Of a stretch of 64,000 bases of DNA, positions 23,174-62,526 are shown in pieces; position 1 is the first letter of the stretch; each line of letters opens with the position of its first letter. Origin of the DNA: an uncultured bacterium (GTDB lineage: Bacteria; Desulfobacterota; BSN033; UBA1163); assembly GCA_938045955.1 (NCBI GenBank), contig CALIBK010000105.1, positions 5,187-69,186 of the forward strand. The letters are read 5' to 3'. Position numbers and translations under genes: made by a program. The notes under the pieces are model-generated. The model worked only from the letters and a program-made list of their open reading frames with translations, did not search any database and was not told the origin of the DNA.

Positions 23174-23179
23174 CTCCTC

Positions 23180-25030: not shown

Positions 25031-25033
25031 CTC

Positions 25034-33281: not shown

Positions 33282-34097
33282 TTATGTGAGCCATCTCTTC
33301 CGACGTTTATAATGTTTGACCTGTCGAAAACTCTTTCTTTCACCGAGGTCTGAGAGACCCAGATAGAAATCCCGAATATCTGGATTCTCTTTCAACTTCT
33401 CTGAGGTATCATGCATCACAAGTCTTCCATTTTCGAGCACATAGGCATAAGGAGCTACGGTAAGGGCCAATTTCACATTTTGTTCGACTAAAAGGAGGGG
33501 AATTTTCTCTTCTTTATTCAGCTTCGTGATAATCTCAAAAATCTCTTTGATGAGAAGAGGGGCCAATCCCATCGAAGGCTCATCGAGGAGCATAAGTTTA
33601 GGCTGTGCCATCAGGGCTCGCCCGATCACTGTCATCTGTTGTTCTCCACCGCTGATAAAACCAGCCATCACGTTTTTCCGCTCAATCAATCTCGGGAAAT
33701 AATGATAAACCATCTCAAGTCTTTCTTTTATGGCTGAGCCATTTCCCCTTAGATGTGCCCCGACTCGAAGGTTCTCCTCGACGGTGAGATGTTCAAAGAC
33801 CCTTCTTCCTTCAATGATTTGGATAATCCCCCTTTTGGCAATCTCCTCGGCAGAGAGATGATGGATCTGTTCTCCCATAAATTCGATAGACCCATCGGTG
33901 ACCTCCCCATCCTCATGCTTCAAAAGGCCAGAGATGGACTTCAGGGTCGTTGATTTTCCTGCCCCATTGGCGCCCAGGAGGGCGACAATCCCCCCTTTGG
34001 GTATATCGATAGAGACGCCCTTGAGGACCAGGATGACCTCATGATACATGACCTCGATGTTATTGAGCTTAAGAATAATCTCTGATGATTGTTCCAA
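33282..34097 (-). CDS. branched-chain-amino-acid-type ABC transporter ATP-binding protein (LivF-like)
   Basis: Walker A GANGAGKST, ABC signature SGGEQQM, Walker B LLLDEP; begins at a TTG (34097) preceded by AGGAGG; no in-frame ATG upstream of the conserved N-terminus. Confidence 0.8.
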   Translation of the reverse strand: MEQSSEIILKLNNIEVMYHEVILVLKGVSIDIPKGGIVALLGANGAGKSTTLKSISGLLKHEDGEVTDGSIEFMGEQIHHLSAEEIAKRGIIQIIEGRRVFEHLTVEENLRVGAHLRGNGSAIKERLEMVYHYFPRLIERKNVMAGFISGGEQQMTVIGRALMAQPKLMLLDEPSMGLAPLLIKEIFEIITKLNKEEKIPLLLVEQNVKLALTVAPYAYVLENGRLVMHDTSEKLKENPDIRDFYLGLSDLGERKSFRQVKHYKRRKRWLT

Positions 34098-34110
34098 GGT
34101 TCATCCTCCT

Positions 34111-35367
34111 TTACCATCCGAGCCAGGAATCCCATTTGTCCGGGAATTTTGCCTTCATGTCAATTTCACCCACAGTTTGGGGTTTTCCTTTAATGACTCT
34201 CCCAACCCTCACGACAGAACTATATCGATGGTCAGTGGGGGTAATGGTCACCAGTTGCCCTCCGAACTTTTTAAGACCATCCCAATTTCGGAAGGATTCA
34301 AAGGCGTCTTTGATCCCTGGTCCATTTAATTTCCCGGCCTTATCGGCAATTTTCATCGCCTCTACAGCTAAAGTCACCTTCACCCAACCTTGGACGGTTC
34401 TTATCAATCTGTTCTCGAGTGGAACACCAGGATTCAGTTTTTTACAATATTCGATTACTGTTTTCTTTGCTGGATATTCATCAATGAAAAGAGCACAGGC
34501 GAGCAAACCCATAGCCCCTTCAGCCGCAGGTCCCGCCAGTTTAGGAAGGTTCTCATCAAATCCCCAGTTATTGATGATGTGATCCGCCCCAAGACCTAAT
34601 GCATAAGCATCTTTTAAAGCAGCGGAGACTGACATTGTCGTATTTCCATGCCACACCAGATTGGCTCCAAATGCTTTAGCTGCAATCACCTGACTTTTTG
34701 TATCCAAAGCGGTTAAAGCGACATGCTGATCAGGTCCAATTTCAAAACCCAAAATAGTTGCCTGATCTTTAATCGCTTTGATTGGAGCGGTAGCATAAGG
34801 AGAAGCCGTATCCATAAAACATACGAATTTGGGCTTCACCCCTTTTTCTCTCAATTCCTTCCATTTTGGGTCTTTCTTCCAAACTTCCTCATACCAGTAT
34901 GTAATTGCTCCGCGAGCATTCGTTGAGTAATCGGTTCCATAAACAAAGTTGTAAGGAGTCTTTTTGGGGTCACAAAGATGACCGGAAAAGGAGCTCGAGA
35001 GGTAAGGCATTTTATCAGCGTTAATCGTCGGAGAGAGAGCTTCTGTATCACCGGTACCCCATCCCAAGACCATCACGACTTTGTCGTAGTCTCTAAATCT
35101 TTTGTAGGTGGTGATAGCCTCAGGAACTCGATATCCATAGTCGTATTGGAAGAGACGAATCTTTTTACCATTGATCCCTCCCATATCATTATAATACTGG
35201 ACTGCTTCTCGAACTCCTAAGGCTTCATCCTTTCCAACATCCGATGTGGCGCCGGTTGTATCCTGAAGTGCGCCGAGTCTTACTTCTTGTGCAAAACTGA
35301 GCATTCCAAAAGGACCCAAGATCATCAATGTTACAATGACTATTAGATTGATTCTTTTTTTCATCAT
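34111..35367 (-). CDS. ABC transporter periplasmic substrate-binding protein (LivK/Leu-Ile-Val-binding family fold)
   Basis: 418 aa with signal peptide MMKKRINLIVIVTLMILGPFGMLSFA; type-I periplasmic binding fold; RBS AGGAGGTG. Confidence 0.8.
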   Translation of the reverse strand: MMKKRINLIVIVTLMILGPFGMLSFAQEVRLGALQDTTGATSDVGKDEALGVREAVQYYNDMGGINGKKIRLFQYDYGYRVPEAITTYKRFRDYDKVVMVLGWGTGDTEALSPTINADKMPYLSSSFSGHLCDPKKTPYNFVYGTDYSTNARGAITYWYEEVWKKDPKWKELREKGVKPKFVCFMDTASPYATAPIKAIKDQATILGFEIGPDQHVALTALDTKSQVIAAKAFGANLVWHGNTTMSVSAALKDAYALGLGADHIINNWGFDENLPKLAGPAAEGAMGLLACALFIDEYPAKKTVIEYCKKLNPGVPLENRLIRTVQGWVKVTLAVEAMKIADKAGKLNGPGIKDAFESFRNWDGLKKFGGQLVTITPTDHRYSSVVRVGRVIKGKPQTVGEIDMKAKFPDKWDSWLGW

Positions 35368-35532
35368 TTTTTCACCTCCTATTTAATTTCCTTATAGCCT
35401 TGATCATTCTTTCACCTGCCATCCACTTGACGAGCATCACCTCCTTTTTTAGTGATGGTGATCGTAATTGTGATGGAGTTAAAAATTTTACTCTATCACC
35501 CACACCATTCACTCTCGTTACCATTCTAAATG

Positions 35533-36627
35533 TTAATAGGAAAATGGCCAGAGATTAAAGTAATTCTTTATCTGCCACCACCGATATGAAAGTCCATTCG
35601 GTTCATAAATCAAGAAAAAAGCAATGGCTAACCCGAAGGCTGCCTCTTTGACATATAGAAACTTTTCGAGCAAATGAGGTAAAAAAGGCATAAGATTTAC
35701 GAAAAAGGGACTCTGGGTTAAGAAGAAGATCAAAAATTTTAGGCCTTCTGGGATAAGGGTCATAAATAAAGAGCCAAAGATGGTTCCGTAGATACTTCCC
35801 ACCCCTCCAATGAGGATCACTCCAACTAACCAAAGTGACCATCCAAAATGGAAATGCTCGGGACTGACCGCAGCCAGGGAGGTGATCCAAAAGGCTCCTG
35901 CTATTCCTCCAAAGAATCCAGCAACAAAGAAAGCAAGAAGTTTATATAGAACAATATTCACTCCCATCGTTTCGGCAGCAATGTCATTGTCCCGAATGGC
36001 AATCCAGGCCCTACCAACCTTGGATCGAAGCAGATTCGCCATGGCCAACGTGCAAAGAACTACCAATATAACCATAAGATAATAGACATCTCTATCTGTC
36101 TTGATCACCCAGGGCCCGATTTTGATCGTTCCTGGAGGGATTGAGAATGCCACCCCTCGTCCTCCAATTTGACTTATATATTGTGTGATGAAGAATTCTA
36201 CCGTGATGAATTGGGCTGCCATCGTGGTCATAATCAAATAAAATCCTTTCACACGGGCGGATGGAAGACCAAATAGAACACACCATAGCCCACCCACCAA
36301 TCCCCCGATAATCATAGCAATCAAAAAGGGGATATGAAGCTGAAGCATCAAAAGGGTACAGGTATAGGCACCTACTGCGAGAAAGGCCGCATGTCCTAAA
36401 GTTATCTGCCCACAATATCCAATAAGAAGTTGAACTCCCATGGCTGCGAGGATGGTATAACCTACCACATTGGCTACAGAGATAAGATACATCCCTGCAA
36501 ATTGGGGAATAAGATAGAAGATGGTAATAAAAAGGAGAGTCATTTTTCCCCAGACAAATTTGGTCTGCCACCAGGCGTGATCCTGACTATAATATTGATG
36601 ATAAACACCACATGGTCGATAACCCAT
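35533..36627 (-). CDS. ABC transporter permease (LivM-like)
   Basis: 364 aa polytopic membrane protein; LivM-family hydrophobic profile; RBS AGGAGG. Confidence 0.75.
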   Translation of the reverse strand: MGYRPCGVYHQYYSQDHAWWQTKFVWGKMTLLFITIFYLIPQFAGMYLISVANVVGYTILAAMGVQLLIGYCGQITLGHAAFLAVGAYTCTLLMLQLHIPFLIAMIIGGLVGGLWCVLFGLPSARVKGFYLIMTTMAAQFITVEFFITQYISQIGGRGVAFSIPPGTIKIGPWVIKTDRDVYYLMVILVVLCTLAMANLLRSKVGRAWIAIRDNDIAAETMGVNIVLYKLLAFFVAGFFGGIAGAFWITSLAAVSPEHFHFGWSLWLVGVILIGGVGSIYGTIFGSLFMTLIPEGLKFLIFFLTQSPFFVNLMPFLPHLLEKFLYVKEAAFGLAIAFFLIYEPNGLSYRWWQIKNYFNLWPFSY

Positions 36628-36694
36628 CTATTAACCTCCTTGTTAATTCCAAAATTAACAATGGGAATTTAGCAATTTCTTTTTGTAATTTGCA

Positions 36695-37579
36695 TTATAC
36701 TCTTTCGATTCTAATCCAGCCCCAAAGTCCGTAAGGTTTGAAAAGCAAAATGATGACCATCACAAAAAATGGAAAGACGTCTTTTACACCTCCCGGCGTA
36801 TAACGACTCAAATAACCGTCTGCAAGATTTTGAATGACCCCGATAACTAACCCTCCCACGATTGCCCCGGGGACAGAATTGAGTCCCCCCAGAACCACCG
36901 CAGGAAGAACCAATAGACCGAGATAGCCAACCGAAATATTCAAACCATTAATATTTCCAAGGAGGGTACCTCCCACCCCTGCTGCCATAAAGGCAATAGC
37001 CCAGGCAAGGGCATAGACGACCTTTGCATTCACTCCTAAGGATAAAGCTGCCATTTCATCATCCGCGGTGGCCTGCATGGAGAGACCCCATTTTGTATAT
37101 TTAAAGAATGAGACAAATGCTAAGAGAAGAATAATAGAGGCGATAAAAGCCCAGAGATAGACTTGGCCAATTACAATCTTCCCAAGAAAGATAGGTTCTA
37201 TGGGAAAGACGGGTGGAGAGAAAACAACTGTATCCGTTCCCCAAATCAATTCCACCATTCCTTTAAAGAAAAATGATAGACCTACAGTGACCATTATTAC
37301 ACTTAAGACAGGTTCCCCAACCATGGGGCGAAGGAAAACGACTTCGGTGAGAATCCCTAAAGCAAATCCAATAGCCAGGGTAATCAAAAGAGCAAGAATA
37401 AAAGGAATATGCCAATGGTATAAGGTGAGACAGACATAGGCCCCGATGAGGGTGAGTTCCCCCATCGCAAGATTTAGCACTCCAGAACATTTATAAATAA
37501 GCGTCCAACCCAGTGCCACCAAAGCGTAGATACTTCCAACCAGAATCCCTGTAATTAAGAGTTGTAAAAAAAGTTCCAT
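36695..37579 (-). CDS. ABC transporter permease (LivH-like)
   Basis: 294 aa polytopic membrane protein, LivH-like; RBS AGGAGG. Confidence 0.75.
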   Translation of the reverse strand: MELFLQLLITGILVGSIYALVALGWTLIYKCSGVLNLAMGELTLIGAYVCLTLYHWHIPFILALLITLAIGFALGILTEVVFLRPMVGEPVLSVIMVTVGLSFFFKGMVELIWGTDTVVFSPPVFPIEPIFLGKIVIGQVYLWAFIASIILLLAFVSFFKYTKWGLSMQATADDEMAALSLGVNAKVVYALAWAIAFMAAGVGGTLLGNINGLNISVGYLGLLVLPAVVLGGLNSVPGAIVGGLVIGVIQNLADGYLSRYTPGGVKDVFPFFVMVIILLFKPYGLWGWIRIERV

Positions 37580-37616
37580 GAAAACCTCCTAAAAATAAGT
37601 TAAATAGCAAAATTAG

Positions 37617-37663
37617 CGATGCAAAATTAACAATTTGAAATGTTTATTTTGCATCGATTTTTT
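37617..37663 (-). promoter_or_regulatory. intercistronic perfect 11-bp palindromic hairpin between the acyl-CoA synthetase and the livH-like permease gene, flanked by T/A-rich runs (attenuator/terminator-like or RNA-stability element)
   Basis: CGATGCAAAAT (37617-37627) and ATTTTGCATCG (37646-37656) are exact reverse complements, 18-nt loop; T-run ATTTTTTATT follows on + strand and TAATTTTGCTATTT on - strand. Confidence 0.35.
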
Positions 37664-39596
37664 ATTGAGGCACCTCCATCACTCGAAGGTCTGTTTTGAT
37701 ATGGACCACCCGTCCATCCTCATAGGTGATGGTCGTGTCCATATGGATATTCTGGGTATCTGAATAGAGTCCGTTTACGATATCCTTATAGCGATTTTCC
37801 ACAAAGGCCCTTCGGAGTTTTCGAGTTCGGGTTAATTCATCATCATCGGCATCAAATTCTTTATAGAGATTCACGAACTTGCGAATTCGAGCGGCTGGGG
37901 GTAAATCCCGGTTCATTTTAACGATCTCTTTTTTAACCAATTCATAAACCTCAGGCTTCTGAGAAAGCTCTGGATAACTGGTATAAGGAATATTGCGATC
38001 TTCAGCCCACTTCCCCACCACCCCATAATCGATACAGATTACCCCGGTTACGTAAGGACGGTTATCCCCGATGGCCCAAACATCCTTAATATAGGGGCTG
38101 AATTTCAATCGACTCTCCAGATACTGGGGGGCAAATTTGGTCCCATCACTCAGGGTCATCACATCCTTGGTTCGGTCAAAAACCACCAGATGACCGTCGG
38201 CGTCAATAAAACCGGTATCCCCGGAATGAAGCCATCCATCCCGAAGGGTTTTTGCTGTTTCTTCTGGCATCTTATAGTACCCCTGAAAGACCGACGGACT
38301 CTTTGAAATAATCTCTCCATCCGGAGTGATCTTCACCTCTGTTTCAGGGATGGGACGTCCTACCGTATCGAATTTGATATCATCATCCCGGTGAAGCACG
38401 GAGATACCGGCGATCTCTGTCTGACCATAGATCTGTTTAAGATTGACCCCCAAGGCATGGAAGAATCGGAAATGGTCGGGCCCCATTGCAGCTCCACCGG
38501 TATAGGTATAGCGAATTCTCGAGAGTCCCAAGTGATCCTTCAATTTTTTATGCACCCCTAAATAGGCAAGATAGTGTAAAACCTTCCAGTACCAGGGGAT
38601 AGGGGTTTTGGAGAACTTTAACTCTGCCACGTGGTATCCAATCTTCATCGCCAGCTCATAGGCCTTCCGTTTTGTCCAGGTAGAATCGAGGTATTTGACC
38701 TGGACATTTCGAACCATCTGTTCATAGATTCGTGGAGGAGCAAACATCACATGAGGACCGATTTCACGAATATTTTCCTGGGCGGTCTCGGGTTCTTCTG
38801 GAAAGTTAAGGGTAAAGCCTGCCTGAATCCCACAGGAGATGGACATCATCTGCTCACCGATCCAGGCAAAAGGAAGATAGGAAACAAAATCGTCAGTTTC
38901 AAAGTAAGGATCGACCCGCATCAGGTTTCTTCCCATGGTTAACATATTGTAATGGGTAAGAAGCGCTCCTTTTGGAAGGGCTGTCGTTCCTGAGGTATAG
39001 AAGAGGAGACAGATTTCATCTCCTTTACCTTTAGAGATCATGTCTTCAAAGAGGCCGGGCTCTTTTTTATCCACCTCTTCTCCAATTTTCATCACTTCCT
39101 TGATACTGATAAGAATGGGATCGTCATAAGCTCTCATTCCCTTTGGGTCATCCCAGAGCATCTTCTTGAGCTTTGGACATTTATCCTTAATCATCAGACA
39201 TTTATCAACCTCTTCCTGTCCTTCTCCAACCATGAGCTTTGCATCTGAATGGTCAATGATATATTGAACCTCATCAATGAGGGAGTCCTGGAATAACCAG
39301 ACTCCCACAGCCCCCACACACATGGCAGCCATTTCGCACCAGAGGGCTTCTGGGCGATTATCTCCAATCATGGCGACCTTGTCTTCACGCTCCAATCCCA
39401 GAGCCACCATCCCAAGGGCAATCTTCTTGACATTTTCATAATACTGTTTCCAGGTAATGGGAATCCAGATTCCAAATTCCTTCTCTCTCATGGCGACCTT
39501 TTTATCCCAGTACTTCTTGGCCATCTGAAGCCAGAGTTTCGGGATGGTTAAATCTTTGGTAATCTCGATCTCTTTCCAGTTAGCGCCTTGTGACAT
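37662..39596 (-). CDS. AMP-forming acyl-CoA synthetase (long-chain-fatty-acid--CoA ligase family) embedded in ABC transporter operon
   Basis: ATG at 39596 (track starts at an upstream TTG) with GGAGGA RBS. AMP-binding motifs YTSGTTALPKGALLTH, GYGQTE-like YGQTEIAG, and a C-terminal domain. Overlaps the livG-like gene by 17 nt. Confidence 0.8.
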   Translation of the reverse strand: MSQGANWKEIEITKDLTIPKLWLQMAKKYWDKKVAMREKEFGIWIPITWKQYYENVKKIALGMVALGLEREDKVAMIGDNRPEALWCEMAAMCVGAVGVWLFQDSLIDEVQYIIDHSDAKLMVGEGQEEVDKCLMIKDKCPKLKKMLWDDPKGMRAYDDPILISIKEVMKIGEEVDKKEPGLFEDMISKGKGDEICLLFYTSGTTALPKGALLTHYNMLTMGRNLMRVDPYFETDDFVSYLPFAWIGEQMMSISCGIQAGFTLNFPEEPETAQENIREIGPHVMFAPPRIYEQMVRNVQVKYLDSTWTKRKAYELAMKIGYHVAELKFSKTPIPWYWKVLHYLAYLGVHKKLKDHLGLSRIRYTYTGGAAMGPDHFRFFHALGVNLKQIYGQTEIAGISVLHRDDDIKFDTVGRPIPETEVKITPDGEIISKSPSVFQGYYKMPEETAKTLRDGWLHSGDTGFIDADGHLVVFDRTKDVMTLSDGTKFAPQYLESRLKFSPYIKDVWAIGDNRPYVTGVICIDYGVVGKWAEDRNIPYTSYPELSQKPEVYELVKKEIVKMNRDLPPAARIRKFVNLYKEFDADDDELTRTRKLRRAFVENRYKDIVNGLYSDTQNIHMDTTITYEDGRVVHIKTDLRVMEVPQ

Positions 39597-40389
39597 AGAT
39601 TTCCTCCGCTTCTCCAAGATAGGCTTTAATTACGTGAGGATTGTTTTGAACCTCTGGGGGAGTCCCTTCGGCAATCTTTTCCCCGAAATTCAGTGCCATC
39701 ACCCGATGGGAGATATCCATCACGACTCCCATATCGTGCTCGACTAACACACAGGTCGTTTGCCATCGTTCCTCTTCATTGATATCCAGGATGAATCGGG
39801 CCATATCCTCCACTTCTTCCAAATTCAGTCCCGCGAGAGGTTCGTCAAGAAGAATAATCTTAGGGTTAAGAGCCAGGGCCCTTGCCAATTCAACACGCTT
39901 TTGAAGCCCATAGGGGAGCATCCCGACGATCTTATCCCGGATATGTTCGATTTCAAGGAGGTCGATAATCTCCCTTTCGATAAAGTCTCGATGCTCTACT
40001 TCCTCCCGTGCAGTCTTTCCAAAATAGATGGCTCCACTGAGAAGGCCGGATTTGAGATGGATGTGGCGACCGAGTCGGATATTGTCGAGAACGGTTGCTC
40101 CTTTAAAGAGCTCGATCTTCTGAAAGGTTCGTGAGATTCCTAACTGGGCCCTTTGATAGGGTTTCAATTTGGTAATCTCTTTACCTTCGAAAAAGATCCT
40201 CCCTTTCTGAGGATGATAAAGGCCATTGATACAGTTTAGCATGACGGTCTTTCCCGCTCCATTTGGACCTATGATAGAAAAGATTTCGCCTTTTTTGACT
40301 TCAAAACTGACTCCCATCAGGGCTTGAACCCCTCCAAAGGCCATATGGATATTTTCGACCTTCAATTGGATCTCATCAGTAAGCACCAT
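39580..40389 (-). CDS. branched-chain-amino-acid-type ABC transporter ATP-binding protein (LivG-like)
   Basis: Walker A GPNGAGKT, signature LPYGLQKRVELARAL, Walker B ILLDEP; RBS AAGGAG. Confidence 0.85.
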   Translation of the reverse strand: MVLTDEIQLKVENIHMAFGGVQALMGVSFEVKKGEIFSIIGPNGAGKTVMLNCINGLYHPQKGRIFFEGKEITKLKPYQRAQLGISRTFQKIELFKGATVLDNIRLGRHIHLKSGLLSGAIYFGKTAREEVEHRDFIEREIIDLLEIEHIRDKIVGMLPYGLQKRVELARALALNPKIILLDEPLAGLNLEEVEDMARFILDINEEERWQTTCVLVEHDMGVVMDISHRVMALNFGEKIAEGTPPEVQNNPHVIKAYLGEAEEIYVTRR

Positions 40390-40540
40390 CCAGAGACTCC
40401 TTTCTCAAGAAGGGTATAATGAAAAATGAATTTTTTATTTCCTACATCTTACAGAGTCTAAAATTTTTTTTGAATCATAAGGAGGGAGAATGAGCTAAAA
40501 TCCATTCATCATTGAAAACTGTTATTCTCTTACCAGAACC

Positions 40541-40565
40541 AATTTTTTTTGTCAAGAAAAAAATT
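40541..40565 (-). promoter_or_regulatory. A/T inverted repeat containing TTGACA (minus strand) upstream of the liv-like/ligase transporter operon; shares a 15-nt core with the TAXI-TRAP upstream region
   Basis: AATTTTTTT-TGTCAAG-AAAAAAATT; core TTTGTCAAGAAAAAA (40548-40562) is repeated exactly at 48711-48725 upstream of the TAXI operon. Minus-strand reading gives TTTTTTCTTGACAAA (-35-like box with upstream T-tract). Confidence 0.3.
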
Positions 40566-40649
40566 GCCAGTTTACGTAAAATGTGAAAAAATTCTCTTAT
40601 AATTTGAATTTAAAGTGATTTTGATAAATTATAAACGAGGATAAGGAAT

Positions 40650-41477
40650 TTAAATATCGAAGAGAATCCTTTGGGCATTCCTGTATAGGATGGCCTCAAT
40701 CGCCTTCTCGCTCAGGGGAAGATCCTTGATGGCTTCGATGTTGGCTCGAATGCTTGTGGGCATGGTGGGCCAGTCTGACCCAAATACTACCTTTTCGGAA
40801 TTCTTTTCAAGCTCCGGAAAGTATCGAAGAAGGTTTTGCGGAGGAAGACCGGTGATGTCCATGTAGAGGTTTCTATGAAGGCGGGAGAGTGAAAAGCAGT
40901 CTTCATACCAGAACCCTCTCCCACTGTGAGCCATAATCATCTTTAAATCAGGGAAGTCTACCGCTACATCATCCAGATAGATGGGATCACAATACTTCAG
41001 CCTCGTACCTTTGAAGATAGAGGTTCCAATGTGAAAGACGATGGGGATTCTTAATTCCTGGGCTTTCTGATAAAGGGGATAGAGTCTTGCCTCATTGGGG
41101 TAGAAAAATTGATAGGAGGGGTGAAGCTTCAGTCCTTTTACCCCTCCTATCTTTACATATTCCTCAAGCCGCTGTGCGATATCTTCATGGACGTTTGGAT
41201 TGATCGAAGCAAAAGGAATGAGGGTCTCATGGCCTCGACAATAATCGATCACCTCTTCCGTCGGGACATATCCACTGGTCGCAGGGGCACACTCGGGAAG
41301 AACCACAGCATACCTGACCCCCTCTGTTTTTAAATGGGCAACTACGAGTTCAGGGTGCTCACTGAATTCATCCATCTTAGAAAAGAATTCAGGGTTAATC
41401 GATTCTAAATAGTTTAACCAGGTGGGATTAAGCAATTCCTTCTTGACATAATGGATATGGAAATCGATCACATCCAT
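40650..41477 (-). CDS. amidohydrolase-2 family metal-dependent hydrolase/decarboxylase (ACMSD/LigW-like TIM barrel)
   Basis: 275 aa; N-terminal metal-binding VIDFHIHY, later HSGRGFWYED and FGSDWP motifs typical of amidohydrolase_2; RBS AAGGAG. Confidence 0.65.
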   Translation of the reverse strand: MDVIDFHIHYVKKELLNPTWLNYLESINPEFFSKMDEFSEHPELVVAHLKTEGVRYAVVLPECAPATSGYVPTEEVIDYCRGHETLIPFASINPNVHEDIAQRLEEYVKIGGVKGLKLHPSYQFFYPNEARLYPLYQKAQELRIPIVFHIGTSIFKGTRLKYCDPIYLDDVAVDFPDLKMIMAHSGRGFWYEDCFSLSRLHRNLYMDITGLPPQNLLRYFPELEKNSEKVVFGSDWPTMPTSIRANIEAIKDLPLSEKAIEAILYRNAQRILFDI

Positions 41478-41487
41478 TTAGCGCTCC

Positions 41488-41760
41488 TTATCCTCCGGCA
41501 AGCATTAAGACCAGATGAATTTCGTCACCGTCTTTCACGGGTTTGAGGAGTTCATCCGGGTAGGCACTCGCATGATTGAGGTAGACCTCCACATGATTGA
41601 GGAGTTTCCCCTTTTTCGCAAACAGGGCTTTTTCCATGGCGGGGTATTGGTGGATGAGATGCTCCAGACATTCACCCACCGTTTGCCCTTCCACTTCCAC
41701 CACTTCCGCTCCATTTGTAAATTGCCGATGTGTGGTATGAATATGAACTTTCACGCCCAT
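41488..41760 (-). CDS. MoaD/ThiS-family ubiquitin-like sulfur-carrier protein (C-terminal Gly-Gly)
   Basis: 90 aa ending ...HLVLMLAGG; beta-grasp-like size; directly downstream of the ThiF/MoeB-like gene (4-nt gap). Confidence 0.6.
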   Translation of the reverse strand: MGVKVHIHTTHRQFTNGAEVVEVEGQTVGECLEHLIHQYPAMEKALFAKKGKLLNHVEVYLNHASAYPDELLKPVKDGDEIHLVLMLAGG

Positions 41761-41763
41761 CCT

Positions 41764-42507
41764 TTACTCCTTCGATGGGATAGATCCACAATGATCACAA
41801 TCTGGGTTTCGCTCCACAGCAAATTCATTGAATGTAAGTTCTAATCCGTCATAGAGAAGGAACCGATTGGTCAGCAGTGTCCCAATGCCCAGTAAATATT
41901 TAATGGCTTCTGTGGCCTGGATGCAACCGATTACCGCAGGAACCACTCCAATGACTGGAAATTTCTCCGGAGGAAGGGTCCCCCGATAGAGACATCTCAG
42001 ACAAGCCGATTTTCCGGGAAGAACGGTCATCACCCTTCCTTCAAACCCATATACCGCCCCATGAATGAATGGGATTCCCTTTTCTATCGAACATCGATTG
42101 AGCACATATCGAGTGGGGAGATTATCCATCGCATCGAGGATGGCATCACACCCTTCAAAAAGAGCCGAGGCATTGGTTTCGTTAATAGTTTCTGCAATGG
42201 CTTCGATTTGAATGGTGGAGTTCAATTTTTCTAACTTCCATTTTGCGGAGTCTACTTTTTTTCGACCGATATCTTCTTCCCAATGTAAAATTTGCCGATT
42301 AAGATTACTCAGGGTAACCTCATCATGATCAATGATCCGTAGTTTTCCAATCCCGGCAGCCGTAAGATAAAAAGCAATGGGAGAACCCAACCCCCCTGCA
42401 CCTGCAATGGCCAGGCACGAACGCTTGAGTTTCTCCTGTCCCTCTGTTCCAATCTCCCCGATCATGATCTGACGGTCATATCTTTCTCGTTCTCCACGTG
42501 TAAGCAT
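41764..42507 (-). CDS. ThiF/MoeB/HesA-family E1-like adenylyltransferase
   Basis: 247 aa; RYDRQIMIGEIG...LAIAGAGGLGSPIAFYLTAAGIGKLRIIDHDEVTLSNLNRQILH nucleotide-binding block; CxxC...CxxC zinc motif (CLRC...CDHC). Confidence 0.8.
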   Translation of the reverse strand: MLTRGERERYDRQIMIGEIGTEGQEKLKRSCLAIAGAGGLGSPIAFYLTAAGIGKLRIIDHDEVTLSNLNRQILHWEEDIGRKKVDSAKWKLEKLNSTIQIEAIAETINETNASALFEGCDAILDAMDNLPTRYVLNRCSIEKGIPFIHGAVYGFEGRVMTVLPGKSACLRCLYRGTLPPEKFPVIGVVPAVIGCIQATEAIKYLLGIGTLLTNRFLLYDGLELTFNEFAVERNPDCDHCGSIPSKE

Positions 42508-42545
42508 CCTTCTCGCTCTTCCTCTCTATCCTAAAATTTTTTGAC

Positions 42546-43028
42546 TCATCTGCCTGGCCTCAAAAAATCGGCTATCCGTTTGGCGGCCTCTCGTTTTCTT
42601 TCTACATTTATAAGGTCTGCGTCTATGTAGCTCACAGCCTTTGGATTACAAAAAAGAACACACTGGGGATTGCCATCACAATAGTCACATTTACAGGTGA
42701 CCCGGTCGATAGGATCAAAGAAGGGGTGCCCGAAAGGACAGGCCATGATGCAAGTTTTGCATCCGATACATTTCTTGGGATCGATGACGACCCTTCGGTT
42801 TTCAAGATCTTTGTGACAGGCCTTGGTAGGACAGACCTCCGTGCAAATAGGTGTTTCACAGTGCTGGCAAACCATGGGGAGATAGAGTCCAACCTCTTCC
42901 CATTTAAGGATACGAATCCTTGAGCGGGTGGGATTGCTCACCCCGCTGTGGAAGACCGAACAAACCATCTCACAGTTTCGACATCCTGTGCATTTTTCAG
43001 GATCTACAAAAAGCACTTTTCCATGCAT
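42546..43028 (-). CDS. 4Fe-4S multi-cluster ferredoxin (DmsB/PsrB/HybA-type electron-transfer subunit, no Tat signal)
   Basis: 160 aa with four Cys clusters (CTGCRNCEMVC, CQHCETPICTEVCP, CIGCKTCIMACP, CKCDYCDGNPQCVLFC). Confidence 0.75.
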   Translation of the reverse strand: MHGKVLFVDPEKCTGCRNCEMVCSVFHSGVSNPTRSRIRILKWEEVGLYLPMVCQHCETPICTEVCPTKACHKDLENRRVVIDPKKCIGCKTCIMACPFGHPFFDPIDRVTCKCDYCDGNPQCVLFCNPKAVSYIDADLINVERKREAAKRIADFLRPGR

Positions 43029-43091
43029 GGGTTTACTCCGGATCTTAAACTAAATCGGCCGTTCTCTTATAAAGCGAACCCCCAGAGCAGT

Positions 43092-44117
43092 CTATTTCTC
43101 TTTTAGACTTAGACGCCCCAAAAGATGTTGAGCCTCGATCCATCTCTCCATCGGAATCTGGTTCTTTACACCTGCCATGAGAATTCCGTAACGGAGGAGA
43201 AGTCCTCCAAGGAGAAGGGAGATCCCAGCAAACCAGACGAGAGCGGGATATTCAGGGAATCTGGAGAAAAAGGATTCCAGAATGAAAGGGAAGAGGAATC
43301 CCGAGAAGACGATCCCTAACCAGAAAAGAAGTTTCAGCTCCCCTTTTAAAAGAAGAGAGACGGAAAGTCCTCCCTGTGCCCCCTGATCATTTGTTTGATT
43401 CACCCGGTAAAGATAAAGGACCAGAACGATCCCTTCGATAATGATCAGAATCTGTTCGACTCCCATTAAAAATTTTATGAGTGAAGAAGAAAAGATTCCT
43501 TGAAGAAGGGTTCTTCCCATCCCAAGGATAAGCATCAATAGACTCATTGAACCGGTAGAAAGAGCGGAAATAAGGAAAAGCAATGGAAGGAGATAGGTGT
43601 TCCATAGAGCTACATGTTTTACCGATTTGAGGAGGATTCCTGTATAGAGGGCCGTCGCGAAAGCAAGGATCAAGGCAACCGTTTCCAGTCCCCTTATCCC
43701 ATCTGTTCCTATATAAGTTCTTAAGTCAGGGGAGAGGGAAAGGATCAGACTGATCAATCCAAATAGAATGAATGAGGAAAGGATGAGAAAACCCCTTGCG
43801 ACCCAGGAGGTTTTGGGATTTAAACAGGCGTAAAGAAATCTCCGTTTTATTCCGAGGTCGAGAATGAGGAAAGGGGCCCCGATTGCAACCAGAACAGGAC
43901 CCCAGAGAAGGGTGGCTTTGGCAATATCCAACTGGAGGGTGAACGGACGGATCTCCATAAGCTTCGTTGAGCCCGTAAACCAATGGATCAATGTCCCGAT
44001 GATGAATGAACCAGCTCCCATCCCTGCCAGGTAGAGATAAATTGCAATGATCCAGCCCCAGTGATGCTGAGGCTTTAGATGTCTTCCGATTCTTGAAGAA
44101 TTGAAAGACCCCGTCAT
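43092..44117 (-). CDS. NrfD/PsrC-family polytopic membrane protein (quinone-interacting anchor)
   Basis: Start set at MTGSF (ATG 44117, AAGGAG RBS); an upstream ATG at 44147 lacks an RBS. About 8-9 predicted TM helices, NrfD-like N-terminal WGWIIAIYLYLAGMGAGS. Confidence 0.65.
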   Translation of the reverse strand: MTGSFNSSRIGRHLKPQHHWGWIIAIYLYLAGMGAGSFIIGTLIHWFTGSTKLMEIRPFTLQLDIAKATLLWGPVLVAIGAPFLILDLGIKRRFLYACLNPKTSWVARGFLILSSFILFGLISLILSLSPDLRTYIGTDGIRGLETVALILAFATALYTGILLKSVKHVALWNTYLLPLLFLISALSTGSMSLLMLILGMGRTLLQGIFSSSLIKFLMGVEQILIIIEGIVLVLYLYRVNQTNDQGAQGGLSVSLLLKGELKLLFWLGIVFSGFLFPFILESFFSRFPEYPALVWFAGISLLLGGLLLRYGILMAGVKNQIPMERWIEAQHLLGRLSLKEK

Positions 44118-44291
44118 TTTTGATTCCACTCCTTTAGAGCTTCCCATTCAAGTTCTTCCCAATGAACAGGCAAATTATCTTTAAAATAATAGCATATCTC
44201 ATTATCTTGTCAAGATTAAATAACCTGTTAATTCCCAGTTAAACCTGATTTGACAATTCAATTGAAATCGGGTATTCTTAATTTGTTCAAT

Positions 44292-45071
44292 ATGATGAAC
44301 AGGCTTAAAAAGACCATCTATTCTGCTCCATCGGTGAAAAAGGCCTTCCGGATCCTAAAGGCCATAGCCGATTCTCCATCAAGACTTGGGGTAAGTGAGT
44401 TATCGAAACAGCTCAAGATAGGTAAAAGTACGGTCCATGGGATCACTATTGCGCTGGAGGAGTTGGGGGTCCTGGTAAGGGATCCCATCGATAAAAAATA
44501 CAGTATTGGATACCGGCTGATAGAACTCGGGAGAAAGGCTTATGGAAGAATCGAATTGAGAGAGATAGCAAGAATCCCTTTAGAAAGATTGGTTGAGGAG
44601 ATTGGGGAAACCGTATTTTTAGGAATCATGGATGGAGATCATATCCTGATTCTGGACGTGGTGGAGCCTCCCAGTGAAATGAAGATTACCTCTCCACCCG
44701 GCACAAGGCTTCCCCTTTTAGCAGGCGCCACAGGAAAGGCCTTTCTCAGTCTCCTTGAAGAAGAGAAGGCAAAAGATATTGTTCAAAAGATCGGGTTAAG
44801 AGGTTATACCCATAAGTCGATCACCGACCCCAAGCGGTATTTAAAGGAGGTTAAAGAGACGAAAGAGAGAGGCTATGCGATTGATGATGAGGAGTACTTG
44901 ATCGGTGTTCGAGCCATTGCGGCTCCTTTACCTATACCTTCCTCTCCTCTTTCAGCCATCTGGCTCGTTGGATTCTCCTCGCGACTGACTGACCAAAAGA
45001 TGGAGAAGGCCATAAAAGAGATCCTTAAGACCGTCCAAGAAATCATCCATTCCTTTGAGATCTACTCCTGA
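44292..45071 (+). CDS. IclR family transcriptional regulator
   Basis: HTH LGVSELSKQLKIGKSTVHGITIALEELGVL followed by an IclR effector-binding domain; the ORF opens with a TTG at 44250, and ATG ATG at 44292 is a plausible start. Start uncertain. Confidence 0.7.
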   Translation: MMNRLKKTIYSAPSVKKAFRILKAIADSPSRLGVSELSKQLKIGKSTVHGITIALEELGVLVRDPIDKKYSIGYRLIELGRKAYGRIELREIARIPLERLVEEIGETVFLGIMDGDHILILDVVEPPSEMKITSPPGTRLPLLAGATGKAFLSLLEEEKAKDIVQKIGLRGYTHKSITDPKRYLKEVKETKERGYAIDDEEYLIGVRAIAAPLPIPSSPLSAIWLVGFSSRLTDQKMEKAIKEILKTVQEIIHSFEIYS

Positions 45072-48757: not shown

Positions 48758-51034
48758 TTACCTCTCTCTCTTTTCAAGGGCTTCGAGAACCTTATCCGGG
48801 GTCACGGGAAGGGTCTTAAACCTCACTCCTATTGCATCGTAGATGGCGTTCACGATAGCTGGAGCTGGAGAAAGCTGAGTTCCTTCTCCCGATTCCTTTG
48901 CTCCAAAAGGGCCTTCAGGATCATTTGTCTCCACCTCAATGGATTCAATTGAGGGAATCTCCATGGCCGTGGGGATTCCATAATCGAGGAAATTCGGATT
49001 GAGGACCTGGCCTTTCTCCATGATTATATTCTCATAAAGAGCCTGACCCATTCCTCCAACGACAGAGCCTTCTAACTGTCCTTCCACAAGCATTGGATTG
49101 ATCGCCTTTCCACAGTCGTGGGCAGTCACCATCTTTAAAACTCTAACTCTTCCCGTTTTTGGATCCACCTCTACCTCTGCGGCTTGGGTCATAAAGGAAT
49201 AAGCGGGGGAGAAGTTTCCATCCTCGTGAAGAAGGGTGGTTGGTTCCTTAGCCGGTGGAAAGTAGGATCCCCTTCCAATGATGGGCATGGGGCGATCGGA
49301 GTATTGATAGATCTTAATAGCCTCCTCAAATGAGAAACCACGATCAGGGTTCTCCCTCAAAAAGATTCTTCGATTCTTCATCTCAAGCTCGCCTGGACTT
49401 ACTTCCATCTTCTCTGCAATCGCTTCGAGAAGTTTCTCCTTTGCTGCCCGGGCTGCCATTCGGGCGGCATTTCCGGCCCTCAATGTAACACCGCTCCCAA
49501 AGGTTCCTGGATCGAGAGGAGTAATCTCTGTATCGGCCGCGGTAATTCGAATATCCTCAATTCGGACCCCTAACTCCTCAGCTACAATCTGGGAGATCAC
49601 CGTCTCTGCTCCCTGGCCAATATCCGCTGCCCCTGTTAGTAAAGTAACGGAACCATCTCTCTCGATCTTGACAATAGCGCCAGAGGAGATATGACTCATA
49701 TTGCTCACACCGCTTGGAAAACTGGCTCCAGCCAGACCCACTCCCCGTCCGAAAGGAAGTTTTCCTCTCTTTTCCCTCCACCCGATGGCCTCTGCGGCCT
49801 TCTTTAAGGTCTCACTGAACCCACAACTCTGAACCAGGAGTTTTGCTGGGTGAGGTTCTCCAGCCTGAAAGGCATTCTTTAGCCTGAGCTCAAGAGGATC
49901 GATCCCTATCTTTTCGGCGATGATATCGAGCTGAGTTTCTACCGCAAATCGAACCTGTGGAATTCCATGTCCCCTCATAGCTCCTCCGACAGGTTTATTC
50001 GTATAGACATGATACCCCTCAAAGAGAAGATTTTCGATACGATATGGAAGCATGATGAAGAAACAGGCCAGCGTGATCATCAGGGGGGCTGTGCTGTTAT
50101 AGGCTCCTCCGTCGGCAATGACTCTAAATTGCTGCGCAAGGATGGTCCCATCTTTTTTCACTCCCGTCTTTAAGTAGATATACATAGGATGACGTTGACG
50201 GGTACAGGTGAAGACTTCCTCTCGGTCATAGACAAACTTCACAGGCCTTCCGGTTCTCATGGCAAAGAAGGCTGCACAGAAGTCTTTGGCATAAAGATCA
50301 ATCTTCTGACCAAACCCCCCTCCCACTTTGGGTTTGATAATTCTCACTTTACTTTCCGGGAGATCGAGGGTGGTTGCCAGGTTCCTCCTGAGAAAGAAGG
50401 GAATCTGGGTAGAAGACCAGAGGGTGACTTTTCCAAAATGGTCCACCATGGCCAGAGCAGCCTGAGGCTCCATCGGGCAGTGATTCACAGGCTGAGTTTC
50501 AAAATGGTCCTCAAAAATAAAGTCAGAGTCTTTAAAGGCTTTCGCCACATTTCCAAATTCCTTTCGAATGGTGGCGCTCACATTATCAGGAACCTCTTCG
50601 TGAATGATGGGGGCCCCTGGTTTCATTGCCTCCAGAGGATCAAAGACCGCCGGGAGTTCTTCATATTCGACTTTTATCCTGGAGATGGCTTCTTCGGCTG
50701 CTTCAGGAGAGGTGGCTACCACCGCTGCCACTTCGTCCCCAATATAGCGAACCTTTTCAATCGCAAGGGCATACTCATCCTTTGCCTTCGGGACGATTCC
50801 ATATTTTCGTTTAGGGATGTCTCTGCCACTGATCGCATCTTTCACACCCGGAACTTTTAAGGCTTCTGTAAGGTCGACTTTAAGGATTTTGGCATGGGGC
50901 AGGGGGCTTCGAAGAATCTTTCCAAAGAGCATTCCCGGTAATGAAAGATCATCGGTATATTTTGCTTTTCCGGTTGCCTTTTCCCATGCATCAAGCATGG
51001 GTTCTCGTTTTCCAACCACATTAAACTCGCTCAT
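48758..51034 (-). CDS. xanthine dehydrogenase-family molybdopterin-binding large subunit (aldehyde oxidoreductase / 4-hydroxybenzoyl-CoA reductase alpha-like)
   Basis: Start chosen at MSEFNVVGKREPMLDA (ATG 51034, AGGAG RBS), the canonical family N-terminus. Family motifs GGGFGQK, AHDCGKAINP, and a C-terminal glutamate region. Confidence 0.8.
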   Translation of the reverse strand: MSEFNVVGKREPMLDAWEKATGKAKYTDDLSLPGMLFGKILRSPLPHAKILKVDLTEALKVPGVKDAISGRDIPKRKYGIVPKAKDEYALAIEKVRYIGDEVAAVVATSPEAAEEAISRIKVEYEELPAVFDPLEAMKPGAPIIHEEVPDNVSATIRKEFGNVAKAFKDSDFIFEDHFETQPVNHCPMEPQAALAMVDHFGKVTLWSSTQIPFFLRRNLATTLDLPESKVRIIKPKVGGGFGQKIDLYAKDFCAAFFAMRTGRPVKFVYDREEVFTCTRQRHPMYIYLKTGVKKDGTILAQQFRVIADGGAYNSTAPLMITLACFFIMLPYRIENLLFEGYHVYTNKPVGGAMRGHGIPQVRFAVETQLDIIAEKIGIDPLELRLKNAFQAGEPHPAKLLVQSCGFSETLKKAAEAIGWREKRGKLPFGRGVGLAGASFPSGVSNMSHISSGAIVKIERDGSVTLLTGAADIGQGAETVISQIVAEELGVRIEDIRITAADTEITPLDPGTFGSGVTLRAGNAARMAARAAKEKLLEAIAEKMEVSPGELEMKNRRIFLRENPDRGFSFEEAIKIYQYSDRPMPIIGRGSYFPPAKEPTTLLHEDGNFSPAYSFMTQAAEVEVDPKTGRVRVLKMVTAHDCGKAINPMLVEGQLEGSVVGGMGQALYENIIMEKGQVLNPNFLDYGIPTAMEIPSIESIEVETNDPEGPFGAKESGEGTQLSPAPAIVNAIYDAIGVRFKTLPVTPDKVLEALEKRER

Positions 51035-51115
51035 CTTAGATACTCCTGTATGGGTGATAAAGATTGTCATGAAGGACAGTGAATGATAAGAATTCACTCT
51101 TATTCACAATAGCCC

Positions 51116-51592
51116 CTATTCACCTCTCGATTCTCTCCCGCTTGCTGATAAAATGGCTTCGACAATCTTCACATAACCGGTGCATCGACAAAGGTTTCCA
51201 GAAATCGCCCTCTTTACCTCTTCCTCTGAGGGATGAGGATTTTCTTCTAAGAAGGCCTTTGCCGTAAGAATCATCCCTGGGGTACAGAAGCCACATTGGA
51301 TTGCTCCTTTTTCAATAAAAGCGTTTTGGAGAGGGTGAAGCTTACCATTCTGTGCCAGACCCTCAATGGTGGTGATCTTTTTCTTTTCCACAGCCACGGC
51401 CAGGGTAAGACAAGAAAGCCATGGCCTTCCATCCACAAGAACGGTACAGGCCCCGCAGGTCCCAAGATCGCATCCTCTTTTTGTTCCTGTCAGGCCAAGA
51501 TCCTCTCTTAAGACTTCGAGAAGGGTTTTATGACCTTCAACCAGGATTTCCAAATCCTCTCCATTTACGTTGAGTTTAAGAATACGTTTCAT
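51116..51592 (-). CDS. [2Fe-2S]-binding small subunit of XDH-family enzyme (CoxS/HcrC-like)
   Basis: ATG 51592 (MKRILKLNVNGE) with AGGAG RBS; plant-type ferredoxin motif CDLGTCGACTV and second cluster motif CGFCTPG...CRCTGY. Confidence 0.85.
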   Translation of the reverse strand: MKRILKLNVNGEDLEILVEGHKTLLEVLREDLGLTGTKRGCDLGTCGACTVLVDGRPWLSCLTLAVAVEKKKITTIEGLAQNGKLHPLQNAFIEKGAIQCGFCTPGMILTAKAFLEENPHPSEEEVKRAISGNLCRCTGYVKIVEAILSASGRESRGE

Positions 51593-51662
51593 AATCACTC
51601 CTGTATTTTCTCTCTTTCCCCATTCCTGTTCACTCTTAGTGTTTAAAATTTCGTTTCGAATT

Positions 51663-62281: not shown

Positions 62282-62292
62282 TTTTTCCTTGA

Positions 62293-62526
62293 TCAGAGAA
62301 CATGATGTAAGCGTGGGTAGAATGTAAACAGATGGGCGATCAGAAAGGAAAGAACCATTCCCCCAATAATCAGTAAGGAGATCCTTAAAAATTTTTTATA
62401 TTTTGGGTCCAACCCGAGGTCAAAAAGGATGAGTCTGATAGCCACAAGAAAGGAGTATAAAAAGGCCGTCAGTAAGATTAATTCCAAAGATATAGCCAGA
62501 GGTCTAATAACATCCTCCGTCATCAT
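62293..62526 (-). CDS. small two-TM membrane protein (HmcD-like position)
   Basis: 77 aa, two hydrophobic helices; start overlaps stop of upstream NrfD-like gene. Confidence 0.4.
   Translation of the reverse strand: MMTEDVIRPLAISLELILLTAFLYSFLVAIRLILFDLGLDPKYKKFLRISLLIIGGMVLSFLIAHLFTFYPRLHHVL

Follow-up and report, generated by a model that had tools for sequence, protein, structure and literature searches.

In a 64,000-nt stretch of contig CALIBK010000105.1 from an uncultured bacterium (the window), the genes for an NrfD-type membrane protein, a four-cluster Fe-S protein, a ThiF-type E1-like enzyme, a MoaD/ThiS-like carrier and an Amidohydro_2 protein follow one another in the same direction on the minus strand and point away from a gene for an IclR-family regulator (Table 1). 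The window belongs to a 70.7-kb metagenome contig (ENA ERZ6863514). Based on gene identities, homologies, and the neighborhoods of related loci, we consider it reasonably probable (roughly 0.6) that the NrfD protein and its Fe-S partner, a paralog of the WorS subunit of tungsten oxidoreductases (WORs), act as a membrane plug for such an oxidoreductase, that the ThiF and MoaD proteins are helpers in the formation of its cofactor, and that the amidohydrolase is a separate entity. Homology and gene order divide the operon into three modules, i.e., NrfD/Fe-S (with IclR), ThiF/MoaD, and the amidohydrolase. A sequence-only reading of this DNA had described a co-directional five-gene operon with gaps of 3–63 nt, a layout which we recovered (63, 38, 3 and 10 nt, going from NrfD to the amidohydrolase), and it had named the gene products correctly, as each of the five genes scored above its Pfam gathering score in the profile searches (PF03916, PF00899, PF02597 and PF04909 among them) and the regulator on the strand opposite NrfD carries HTH_IclR and IclR_C domains. 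It was likewise right in noting that the operon has no molybdo- or heme catalytic subunit (we found no tungsto-enzyme in the operon either) and that there is no MoaE or ThiG partner nearby, none being present among the window open reading frames (ORFs) scanned.

Gene neighborhoods and a shared, predicted operator motif

We compared the operon with 49 loci from species-representative genomes, identified via NrfD homologs, and with ~85 metagenome loci (loci are cited by L numbers), using BLAST mapping and clustering of their ORFs. The 49 genome loci were mostly from Thermodesulfobacteriota (labelled Syntrophaceae or Syntrophorhabdus), with a few from Dehalococcoidales or Chloroflexia. The ferredoxin gene directly followed NrfD in every locus with enough downstream sequence, and IclR was divergent from NrfD in 39 of the 47 genome loci with enough upstream sequence; on this comparative evidence the divergent IclR and NrfD-Fe-S genes are the conserved core of the system. 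MoaD-like genes were present in 28 of the 49 loci, ThiF in 20 and the amidohydrolase in three; ThiF was attached to the NrfD operon in 15 of the 49 genomes and MoaD in 19, and in others they were found beside a tungsten AFOR operon. Thus co-conservation, which had been named as the test of the sequence-only reading, held for NrfD, the Fe-S protein and IclR in essentially every locus and failed for ThiF, MoaD and the amidohydrolase, and the proposal that all five genes form one system coupling a redox anchor, a thiocarboxylate-forming pair and an ACMSD/LigW-type enzyme is unsupported by these data.

A search for the genes that do accompany the NrfD module identified an AFOR-family gene in 32 of the 49 genome loci, at a median distance of 2.4 kb, as against 2 of 49 amidohydrolase-anchored loci from similar organisms, which served as background. 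Of the 19 loci for which at least 8 kb of flanking sequence was available on both sides, 17 had an AFOR operon no more than 10 kb away, and in a reciprocal test all three AFOR-anchored loci, which were picked solely for the length of their contigs, carried IclR-NrfD within 10 kb. In the related loci the AFOR operon (encoding a small Zn-ribbon protein, a 646-aa AFOR, and WorS) lies 0–9 kb from the NrfD module, and in four Chloroflexi loci (L038, L049, L050 and L053) AFOR immediately precedes NrfD-Fer4 in the same orientation. Genes resembling LysX, ArgB, ArgC and ArgD that lie between MoaD and AFOR in some loci were judged to be unrelated neighbors, of LysW-type amino-acid synthesis.

The NrfD and AFOR operons also share a sequence motif. 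While a simple inverted-repeat search of the IclR-NrfD intergenic region found nothing, a cross-locus alignment of these regions yielded the motif GTTCA-N6-[TA]GAAC, which is present upstream of NrfD in at least one copy in 48 of 55 loci and in at least two copies in 43 of them, the background being 0.08 sites in 500 nt. Within the 64 kb of the window it occurs just twice, as the predicted operators O1 and O2 (Table 1). At other places in the related loci, 51 sites fall just upstream of gene starts, of which 46 precede AFOR operons, usually as pairs: 38 are before the small-protein/AFOR/WorS operon, and eight before an operon of Fer4, AFOR-503 and DmsC-like genes. The motif was absent from loci lacking IclR, and none was found before hcr, TAXI, isocitrate-dehydrogenase-family genes or the amidohydrolase. 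As the motif is common to the NrfD and tungsten-enzyme operons, these look like one predicted IclR regulon, and the position of O2 suggests that IclR would regulate its own gene. The aligned intergenic regions also have -35 and extended -10 elements in common; the TTGACAA element is kept in 41 of 45 such regions, and the block ATCTTGACAA...TATGCTATGATTA of the NrfD promoter is also kept across loci. A molybdenum-cofactor or other riboswitch in the operon was considered and rejected, as an Rfam scan of the window gave no match at the gathering score and, for 40300–44400, nothing of relevance even at E ≤ 1.

Two further observations concern the genes on the far side of iclR. Eight loci (L016, L017, L019, L029, L037, L039, L045 and L055, e.g., L029:5498-8883) have a second putative membrane-bound tungsten enzyme there, with an operon for a 157-aa Fer4 protein, a shorter AFOR (~503 aa) and a polytopic protein of 292 aa that matches DmsC weakly; none of these bears a signal for twin-arginine translocation (Tat), and the operon has the same operator motif. 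In addition, in 19 of the 49 genome loci (e.g., L004, L011 and L020) there is a gene of the isocitrate/isopropylmalate-dehydrogenase family (357 aa) upstream of iclR and convergent with it, whose product is tartrate/D-malate-dehydrogenase-like as judged from its N-terminus; a DHDPS-family gene and a TAXI-TRAP transporter are often next to it, and no operator motif precedes these genes.

The Fe-S protein, its proposed partner enzymes and NrfD

By its matches the Fe-S protein is a polyferredoxin of the WorS/AorA type rather than of the NrfC/PsrB type. In a search against the PDB its best matches were small Fe-S subunits of tungsten enzymes, namely 9mqx_E (2e-37), AorA of Aromatoleum aromaticum (8c0z_C, 8e-35), the WOR5 small subunit (6x6u_B, 1.5e-23) and BamC (4z3w_E, 3.7e-16), whereas PsrB, the classical NrfD partner, reached only 3e-13. 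The related loci usually have two ferredoxin paralogs (55–58% identity), one after NrfD and one after AFOR, and in a neighbor-joining tree the ferredoxins next to NrfD formed a monophyletic group, with the clade of AFOR-adjacent WorS as its sister. The gene for the ferredoxin of the NrfD module follows NrfD, and is not beside the catalytic WorL gene, in the window and in most loci, the exceptions being the Chloroflexi loci. The 16 Cys residues (13, 16, 19, 23, 54, 57, 62, 66, 87, 90, 93, 97, 114, 117, 123 and 127) are invariant in both paralog groups and are sufficient for four [4Fe-4S] clusters. Since the first Cys motif starts at residue 13 there is no room for a Tat signal, the absence of which had been remarked on in the sequence-only reading, and none was found in 75 Fe-S homologs or in the AFOR proteins. 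We also considered export of the Fe-S protein on a Tat-bearing partner and rejected it, as there was no Tat-like N-terminus in the AFORs, in a dimethyl sulfoxide (DMSO)-reductase-type neighbor, or in the conserved neighbors.

The 646-aa AFOR of the related loci matched the AOR of Pyrococcus furiosus (1aor) over its full length (3.9e-90). Its identification as BamB was rejected, as the match to BamB was only 1.8e-56 and covered the N-terminal two-thirds. The enzyme is highly conserved: over the same 22 loci its mean pairwise identity was 89%, compared with 66% for NrfD, and it is 84–99% identical across lineages whose NrfD proteins are 50–87% identical. As a side observation, over the top 120 database clusters the homologs (P0241-P0360) of one such AFOR (L005:10710-12650) were all exactly 646 aa in length and 86–97% identical. 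A Zn-ribbon-like protein of ~100 aa always precedes this AFOR, and often there is also a 440-aa protein with a weak radical-SAM match. In one related locus (L146:1364-6832), genes of the benzoyl-CoA lower pathway directly adjoin the AFOR/WorS/MoaD/Fer4/NrfD/IclR block; these include had (TIGR03201, 471 bits) and oah/bamA (TIGR03200, 540 bits), both above the NCBIfam equivalog cutoffs, together with genes for an enoyl-CoA hydratase, an SDR, and a protein like cyclohexanecarboxyl-CoA dehydrogenase. These neighbors hint at a role of the AFOR operon in aromatic or alicyclic acyl-CoA metabolism.

The NrfD protein has eight hydropathy peaks and gave no sequence match to solved structures even at E ≤ 10. 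However, its AlphaFold2 model (predicted local distance difference test score (pLDDT) 69.5, i.e., moderate) had ActC (8k9e_C and 6f0k_C) and PsrC (2vpw_C) as top Foldseek matches, with TM-scores of 0.44–0.58, which confirms, at the level of a predicted structure, a fold of the ActC (alternative complex III)/PsrC type. The distribution of charged residues in the family is strongly asymmetric: Lys plus Arg averaged 20.4 (minimum 16) on the side formed by the segment before the first transmembrane (TM) helix, loops 2-3, 4-5 and 6-7 and the C-terminal tail, versus 4.1 (maximum 8) on the other side, and it is the Lys/Arg-rich loops (residues 97–119 and 173–188) that are conserved (column identity 0.91 and 0.84). 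In the homologous segments of two controls the corresponding counts were 6 versus 10 (Escherichia coli NrfD) and 8 versus 10 (HybB), and the Fe-S partners of both have Tat signals. As the bias is reversed relative to these E. coli controls, the family is most simply viewed as inverted with its conserved face in the cytoplasm, and based on this the NrfD protein of the window is probably inverted relative to E. coli NrfD and HybB and cytoplasm-facing. An N-in orientation of canonical NrfD, which would have made a Tat-less partner paradoxical, was overturned by aligning E. coli NrfD and HybB. SoeC is the sole NrfD-like subunit that has been proposed to face the cytoplasm (PMC8076601).

Subunits of the WorS/AorA type chain into nanowires that have AorC or WorABC as a cap, and we propose that the NrfD module would be a membrane plug in the role which AorC or WorABC has in the soluble WOR nanowires. 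The Fe-S protein would dock on the conserved, positively charged cytoplasmic loops of the inverted NrfD and so join the WorS-WorL unit of a cytoplasmic AFOR-family enzyme to the membrane; electrons would then be exchanged between the membrane and the tungsten site, with the menaquinone pool as the likeliest link and ion translocation as a possible addition. In the lineage of the window the AFOR operon must be elsewhere in the genome (i.e., not within the 64 kb) or have been lost.

Several points weigh against a membrane plug for a tungsten enzyme. All of the loci are from metagenome-assembled genomes and all of the evidence is computational. The 64 kb of the window gave no AFOR gene in a tblastn search, and the 2.4 kb by which the contig runs on past 64000 has none either. 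Aldehyde oxidation at ~-500 mV with menaquinone as the acceptor would entail a large energy loss unless ion translocation were coupled to it. The bias in the two E. coli controls, NrfD and HybB, is weak, and the canonical NrfD topology is taken in part from general background. There is no invariant Ser or Thr in TM helix 2 of our family alignment, whose positions were not mapped residue by residue to the solved structures; a Ser in this helix is conserved in quinone-binding NrfD subunits (PMC8076601). Lastly, the window has a second NrfD-type module (60227–64000, running on into L141:2039-6225 of the same contig), which consists of a Fer4_11 protein (228 aa, starting past the window end) with no Tat signal, an NrfD (62523–63716, 397 aa, ~10 TM helices), a 77-aa ORF, and a 684-aa HdrD/DsrK-like protein with Fer4 and two CCG domains (60227–62281). 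The charge bias of this second NrfD (10 versus 13) shows no clear inversion, so the absence of a Tat signal is not always coupled to an inverted membrane subunit.

The pair might instead be a stand-alone ferredoxin:quinone oxidoreductase (or a ferredoxin-driven, ion-translocating one) that re-oxidizes the soluble ferredoxin reduced by the tungsten enzymes and others, and is not physically joined to a WorL-WorS wire. This would be in keeping with the occurrence of the NrfD/Fe-S pair without a nearby AFOR in the window and in L032 and L036 (with ~10 kb of flank on each side), and with the fact that the AFOR operon has a WorS of its own; the shared operator would fit equally well. However, the Fe-S protein is a close paralog of the AFOR-bound WorS, at the 55–58% identity given above, and not of the NrfC/PsrB type, AFOR, Fe-S and NrfD form one string of genes in Chloroflexi, and WorS/AorA subunits are known to chain, based on which we regard a stand-alone enzyme as unlikely.

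The ThiF/MoaD pair, the amidohydrolase and the window

As the sequence-only reading had it, the ThiF protein is E1-like with a Zn-binding CxxC motif (GAGGLG at residue 36, and a CxxC pair with CLRC at 169 and CDHC at 237) and is encoded next to a 90-aa carrier ending in Gly-Gly. The GxGGxG motif and both CxxC motifs are present in 23 of 23 ThiF homologs, and the Gly-Gly end in 33 of 35 homologs of the MoaD-like protein. The nearest NCBIfam model to ThiF was MoeB (NF006444), with a score of 288.5 bits (6.1e-86) against a cutoff of 449, which is not an equivalog-level match, and the MoaD-like protein scored just below the cutoffs of the NCBIfam SAMP1 and archaeal MoaD models. In related loci the two genes are found at the end of the NrfD operon or next to the AFOR operon, the window itself having no AFOR. 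There are precedents for such genes beside tungsten enzymes: the last two genes of the A. aromaticum aor operon are the MoaD-like aorD and aorE, which are regarded as tungsten-cofactor maturation factors (PMC6365974), and a 2026 classification of WORs describes a ThiS-like WorX and notes that worX and thiF, probably genes of pterin biosynthesis, occur next to WOR genes (PMC13328260). Based on these precedents and on the genomic placement, we read ThiF/MoaD as a dedicated sulfur-carrier system for a pyranopterin cofactor; by homology and analogy the two are a match to a cofactor-maturation pair of the WorX/thiF (AorD/E) type. The carrier would be adenylated and thiocarboxylated, and would then supply the dithiolene sulfur for the pyranopterin of a tungsten (or molybdenum) cofactor. 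Sulfuration of a Mo/W cofactor had been offered as an alternative in the sequence-only reading, and the involvement of such a cofactor was close to the mark. In a separate set of loci (L075, L076, L086 and L103) a ThiF-like gene (~44% identical to that of the window), downstream of amidohydrolase orthologs, adjoins genes for XDH-family Mo enzymes, a further case of an E1-like gene accompanying a pterin enzyme.

The wider window has the character of a region for the anaerobic catabolism of aromatic or alicyclic acids. Upstream of the operon there are a TAXI-TRAP transporter, a Mo enzyme like 4-hydroxybenzoyl-CoA reductase (48758–52640), DctPQM, and an AMP-forming ligase; downstream there are a Liv-type ABC transporter and a 651-aa AMP-forming ligase, and further on a cluster of Bam(D-I)-like, ETF and acyl-CoA dehydrogenase genes. 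The Mo enzyme is encoded by three genes like those for 4-hydroxybenzoyl-CoA reductase subunits; as its alpha subunit scored 777 bits against a TIGR03194 cutoff of 994, it is not an equivalog but a relative within the XDH family. Orthologs of these genes (83–92% identity) accompany the NrfD locus in seven of the 49 genomes.

It could be argued that in the lineage of the window the NrfD module and ThiF/MoaD serve this Mo enzyme and not a tungsten AFOR, given that the HcrABC-like genes are 4.6 kb upstream and the window lacks an AFOR gene, and given the ThiF-like genes beside XDH-family genes described above. However, the association in 7 of 49 genome loci compares poorly with 32 of 49 for AFOR, the hcr genes have no operator motif upstream since both sites of the window are in the IclR-NrfD intergenic region, and the Fe-S protein is WorS-like; we therefore consider service to this Mo enzyme improbable.

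The amidohydrolase has the metal ligands H7, H9, H149, H184 and D235 (HxH/His/His/Asp), which are invariant, and was modeled as a TIM barrel (pLDDT 89.5). It had no NCBIfam match, and its closest structure was that of an uncharacterized protein (3irs, 20% identity), followed by LigJ, gamma-resorcylate decarboxylase, LigW and ACMSD (12–20% identity overall); the decarboxylases and the LigJ hydratase scored alike, at 12–18% identity, against it. Its orthologs (66–79% identity) are abundant, occurring after DctPQM and a DHDPS-family gene and most often beside Liv-type ABC/AMP-ligase genes. In four loci (L064, L079, L081 and L094) the ortholog is followed by 88–96% identical copies of the Liv/ligase genes of the window, and there is no NrfD, ThiF or MoaD upstream; the MoaD-amidohydrolase junction was found in 3 of 49 amidohydrolase-anchored loci. 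As the orthologs sit with transporter and ligase genes and rarely with MoaD, the amidohydrolase is seen as a passenger from the adjacent uptake/activation module, and from these gene neighborhoods it is a lineage-specific, catabolic passenger that joined the operon only in the lineage of the window. In the window it is predicted to be co-transcribed with the operon, but it would act together with the downstream ABC-transporter and CoA-ligase genes.

This placement of the amidohydrolase also bears on the proposal that all five proteins are one redox-linked sulfur-transfer or (de)carboxylation system, with the membrane module giving or taking electrons for the chemistry of the carrier and the amidohydrolase. 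The tight packing of the genes (gaps of 3–63 nt), the preservation of the five-gene order in six related loci (L002, L003, L007, L008, L042 and L061), and the ACMSD/LigW/LigJ fold and metal ligands of the amidohydrolase would all suit such a system. However, the amidohydrolase is present in only three of the 49 genome loci and its orthologs occur with DctPQM/DHDPS or Liv-ABC/AMP-ligase genes in the absence of NrfD, ThiF and MoaD, the ThiF and MoaD genes shift between the NrfD and AFOR operons, and there is no operator site in front of the amidohydrolase gene, all of which make a single five-protein system very improbable. Finally, a role of ThiF and the MoaD-like protein as a SAMP-type protein-conjugation pair, or as the sulfur source for a thiolated metabolite or tRNA and not for a pterin cofactor, would be in keeping with best NCBIfam matches that include SAMP1 (2.8e-12) and the SAMP-activating E1 UbaA (5.4e-71), all below cutoffs. 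Such a role is hardly credible, however, as the MoeB model scored higher (6.1e-86), the pair is linked genomically to AFOR in many loci with the precedent of WorX/thiF and AorD/E, and the loci showed no JAMM protease or other gene for conjugation, although no search was aimed at these.

The features of the operon are listed in Table 1. For two of the genes the start was chosen within a longer ORF: the IclR ORF opens at a TTG at 44250 with the ATG at 44292 as the likely start, and the NrfD ORF (43092–44147) has 351 codons' worth of residues, with the likely true start at the ATG at 44117 (341 aa), which is preceded by AAGGAG and is also where the sequence-only reading had the gene end on the forward coordinates.

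Table 1. Coordinates of the IclR-NrfD region and neighboring genes in the window
Feature	Position	Strand	Remarks
IclR-family regulator	44292..45071	+	HTH_IclR and IclR_C domains; called as a 259 aa gene
Operator O2 (predicted), GTTCAATATGATGAAC	44285..44300	.	motif GTTCA-N6-[TA]GAAC; overlaps iclR start and promoter-proximal region
Sigma-70-like iclR promoter, TTGACA-17-TATTCT	44250..44278	+	consensus match only, 10/12
Sigma-70-like NrfD operon promoter, TTGACA-16-TGnTATTAT	44186..44213	-	11/12 consensus, extended -10
Operator O1 (predicted), minus strand GTTCATTGGGAAGAAC	44152..44167	.	between -10 element and NrfD ribosome-binding site
NrfD/PsrC-family integral membrane subunit	43092..44117	-	PF03916, 119.9 bits (cutoff 25.8), residues 27-327; 8 predicted TM helices
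WorS/AorA-like polyferredoxin, four [4Fe-4S]	42546..43028	-	160 aa; Fer4_11 and others; no Tat signal
ThiF/MoeB-type E1-like adenylyltransferase	41764..42507	-	247 aa; PF00899, 254.5 bits; no rhodanese domain
MoaD/ThiS-fold sulfur carrier (WorX/AorD-like)	41488..41760	-	90 aa, GG end; PF02597, 34.9 bits (cutoff 22.5)
Amidohydrolase_2 TIM-barrel metalloenzyme	40650..41477	-	275 aa; PF04909, 121.3 bits
Liv-type ABC transporter genes and 651-aa AMP-forming ligase	33282..40389	-	Pfam; outside NrfD module

Some further genes of the window deserve mention. The cluster at 13486–26661 resembles BamD-I together with ETF genes and has no BamB/AFOR gene; it encodes HdrD-like, NuoE-, NuoF- and NuoG/FdhA-like proteins, EtfAB, an acyl-CoA dehydrogenase, a 747-aa GltD-like flavoprotein and a 644-aa HdrA-like protein, and its GC content and GC skew are unlike those of the rest of the window. 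At the edge of this cluster (11221–13478) a gene for a large subunit of the methylmalonyl-CoA-mutase family (557 aa) adjoins one for an ATP:corrinoid adenosyltransferase (174 aa).

Significance and relation to known systems

Going beyond the membrane plug and its cofactor helpers, we tentatively suggest, at somewhat less than even odds, that these genes represent an unclassified tungsten oxidoreductase complex in uncultured Thermodesulfobacteriota (Syntrophaceae- and Syntrophorhabdus-like) and some Dehalococcoidales, in which the WorS wire of a conserved cytoplasmic AFOR is plugged via a dedicated WorS paralog into an inverted NrfD, so that a very low-potential, tungsten-catalyzed step would be coupled either to ion translocation or to the quinone pool; in some loci this step would be placed amid genes of the benzoyl-CoA pathway (had, oah and one like that for cyclohexanecarboxyl-CoA dehydrogenase). 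In the literature searched we found no description of a link between NrfD and a tungsten oxidoreductase, AOR or BamB. WORs now fall into five classes, of which the sole membrane-linked one is periplasmic and Tat-dependent, and among the catalogued NrfD-type complexes none has a tungsten enzyme as its partner. If the suggestion is true, these genes would provide a membrane-energized step in anaerobic aromatic or alicyclic acid degradation and would define both a new WOR class and a new type of NrfD complex, and a cytoplasm-facing NrfD tied to AFOR would be a new wiring of very low-potential tungsten chemistry to the membrane. The organisms concerned live as syntrophs and as anaerobes that degrade aromatic compounds, to which each millivolt is of consequence, and how they balance electrons in pathways of the benzoyl-CoA type is still a matter of debate. 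Experiments could start from the predicted operator and from the tight regulon of iclR, the nrfD operon and the AFOR operons.

The nearest known systems are AorABC of A. aromaticum and WorABCSL of Acetomicrobium mobile (WOR classes III/IV), which have the closest solved relative of the four-cluster Fe-S subunit of the window, and which share with the related loci an AOR-like AFOR (1aor, 3.9e-90), MoaD-like and ThiF accessory genes, and a terminal module that takes electrons from the WorS chain. They differ in that their terminal module is a soluble FAD (AorC) or BfuABC-type (WorABC) one, whereas here it would be an NrfD-type membrane module with a WorS paralog of its own, and the catalytic gene is outside of the operon and absent from the 64 kb window. 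The class V WORs (YdhV/YdhY type, clade 41) likewise have an AFOR-family enzyme proposed to be linked to the respiratory chain via membrane subunits (PMC13328260); however, this class is defined by a WorS that bears a Tat signal or a TM segment and by a periplasmic location, and is confined to clade 41 (PMC13328260), whereas here there is no Tat signal and NrfD is predicted to face the cytoplasm. SoeABC also combines an NrfD-like anchor with a Tat-less four-cluster Fe-S subunit, its peripheral subunits being proposed to be cytoplasmic and its anchor inverted (PMC8076601), but it has a Mo-bisPGD catalytic subunit of the DMSO reductase family and a SoeB/DmsB-type Fe-S subunit, in place of the AFOR partner and WorS-type protein that we propose here. 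In common with PsrABC and NrfABCD the operon has a PF03916 membrane subunit, with a predicted PsrC/ActC fold, and an adjacent subunit for four [4Fe-4S] clusters; the partners of those are Tat-exported with periplasmic docking, whereas in our operon the Fe-S protein lacks a Tat signal, and NrfD has the opposite charge bias and gave no sequence match to a solved NrfD-like chain. Finally, the ThiF/MoaD pair is similar to WorX/thiF, AorD/AorE and MoeB-MoaD in having a Gly-Gly protein of ThiS/MoaD fold and an E1 with a Zn motif that are linked genomically to WOR genes, and is unlike these in that it is behind a membrane module, has no MoaE nearby, and scores below the NCBIfam equivalog cutoffs.

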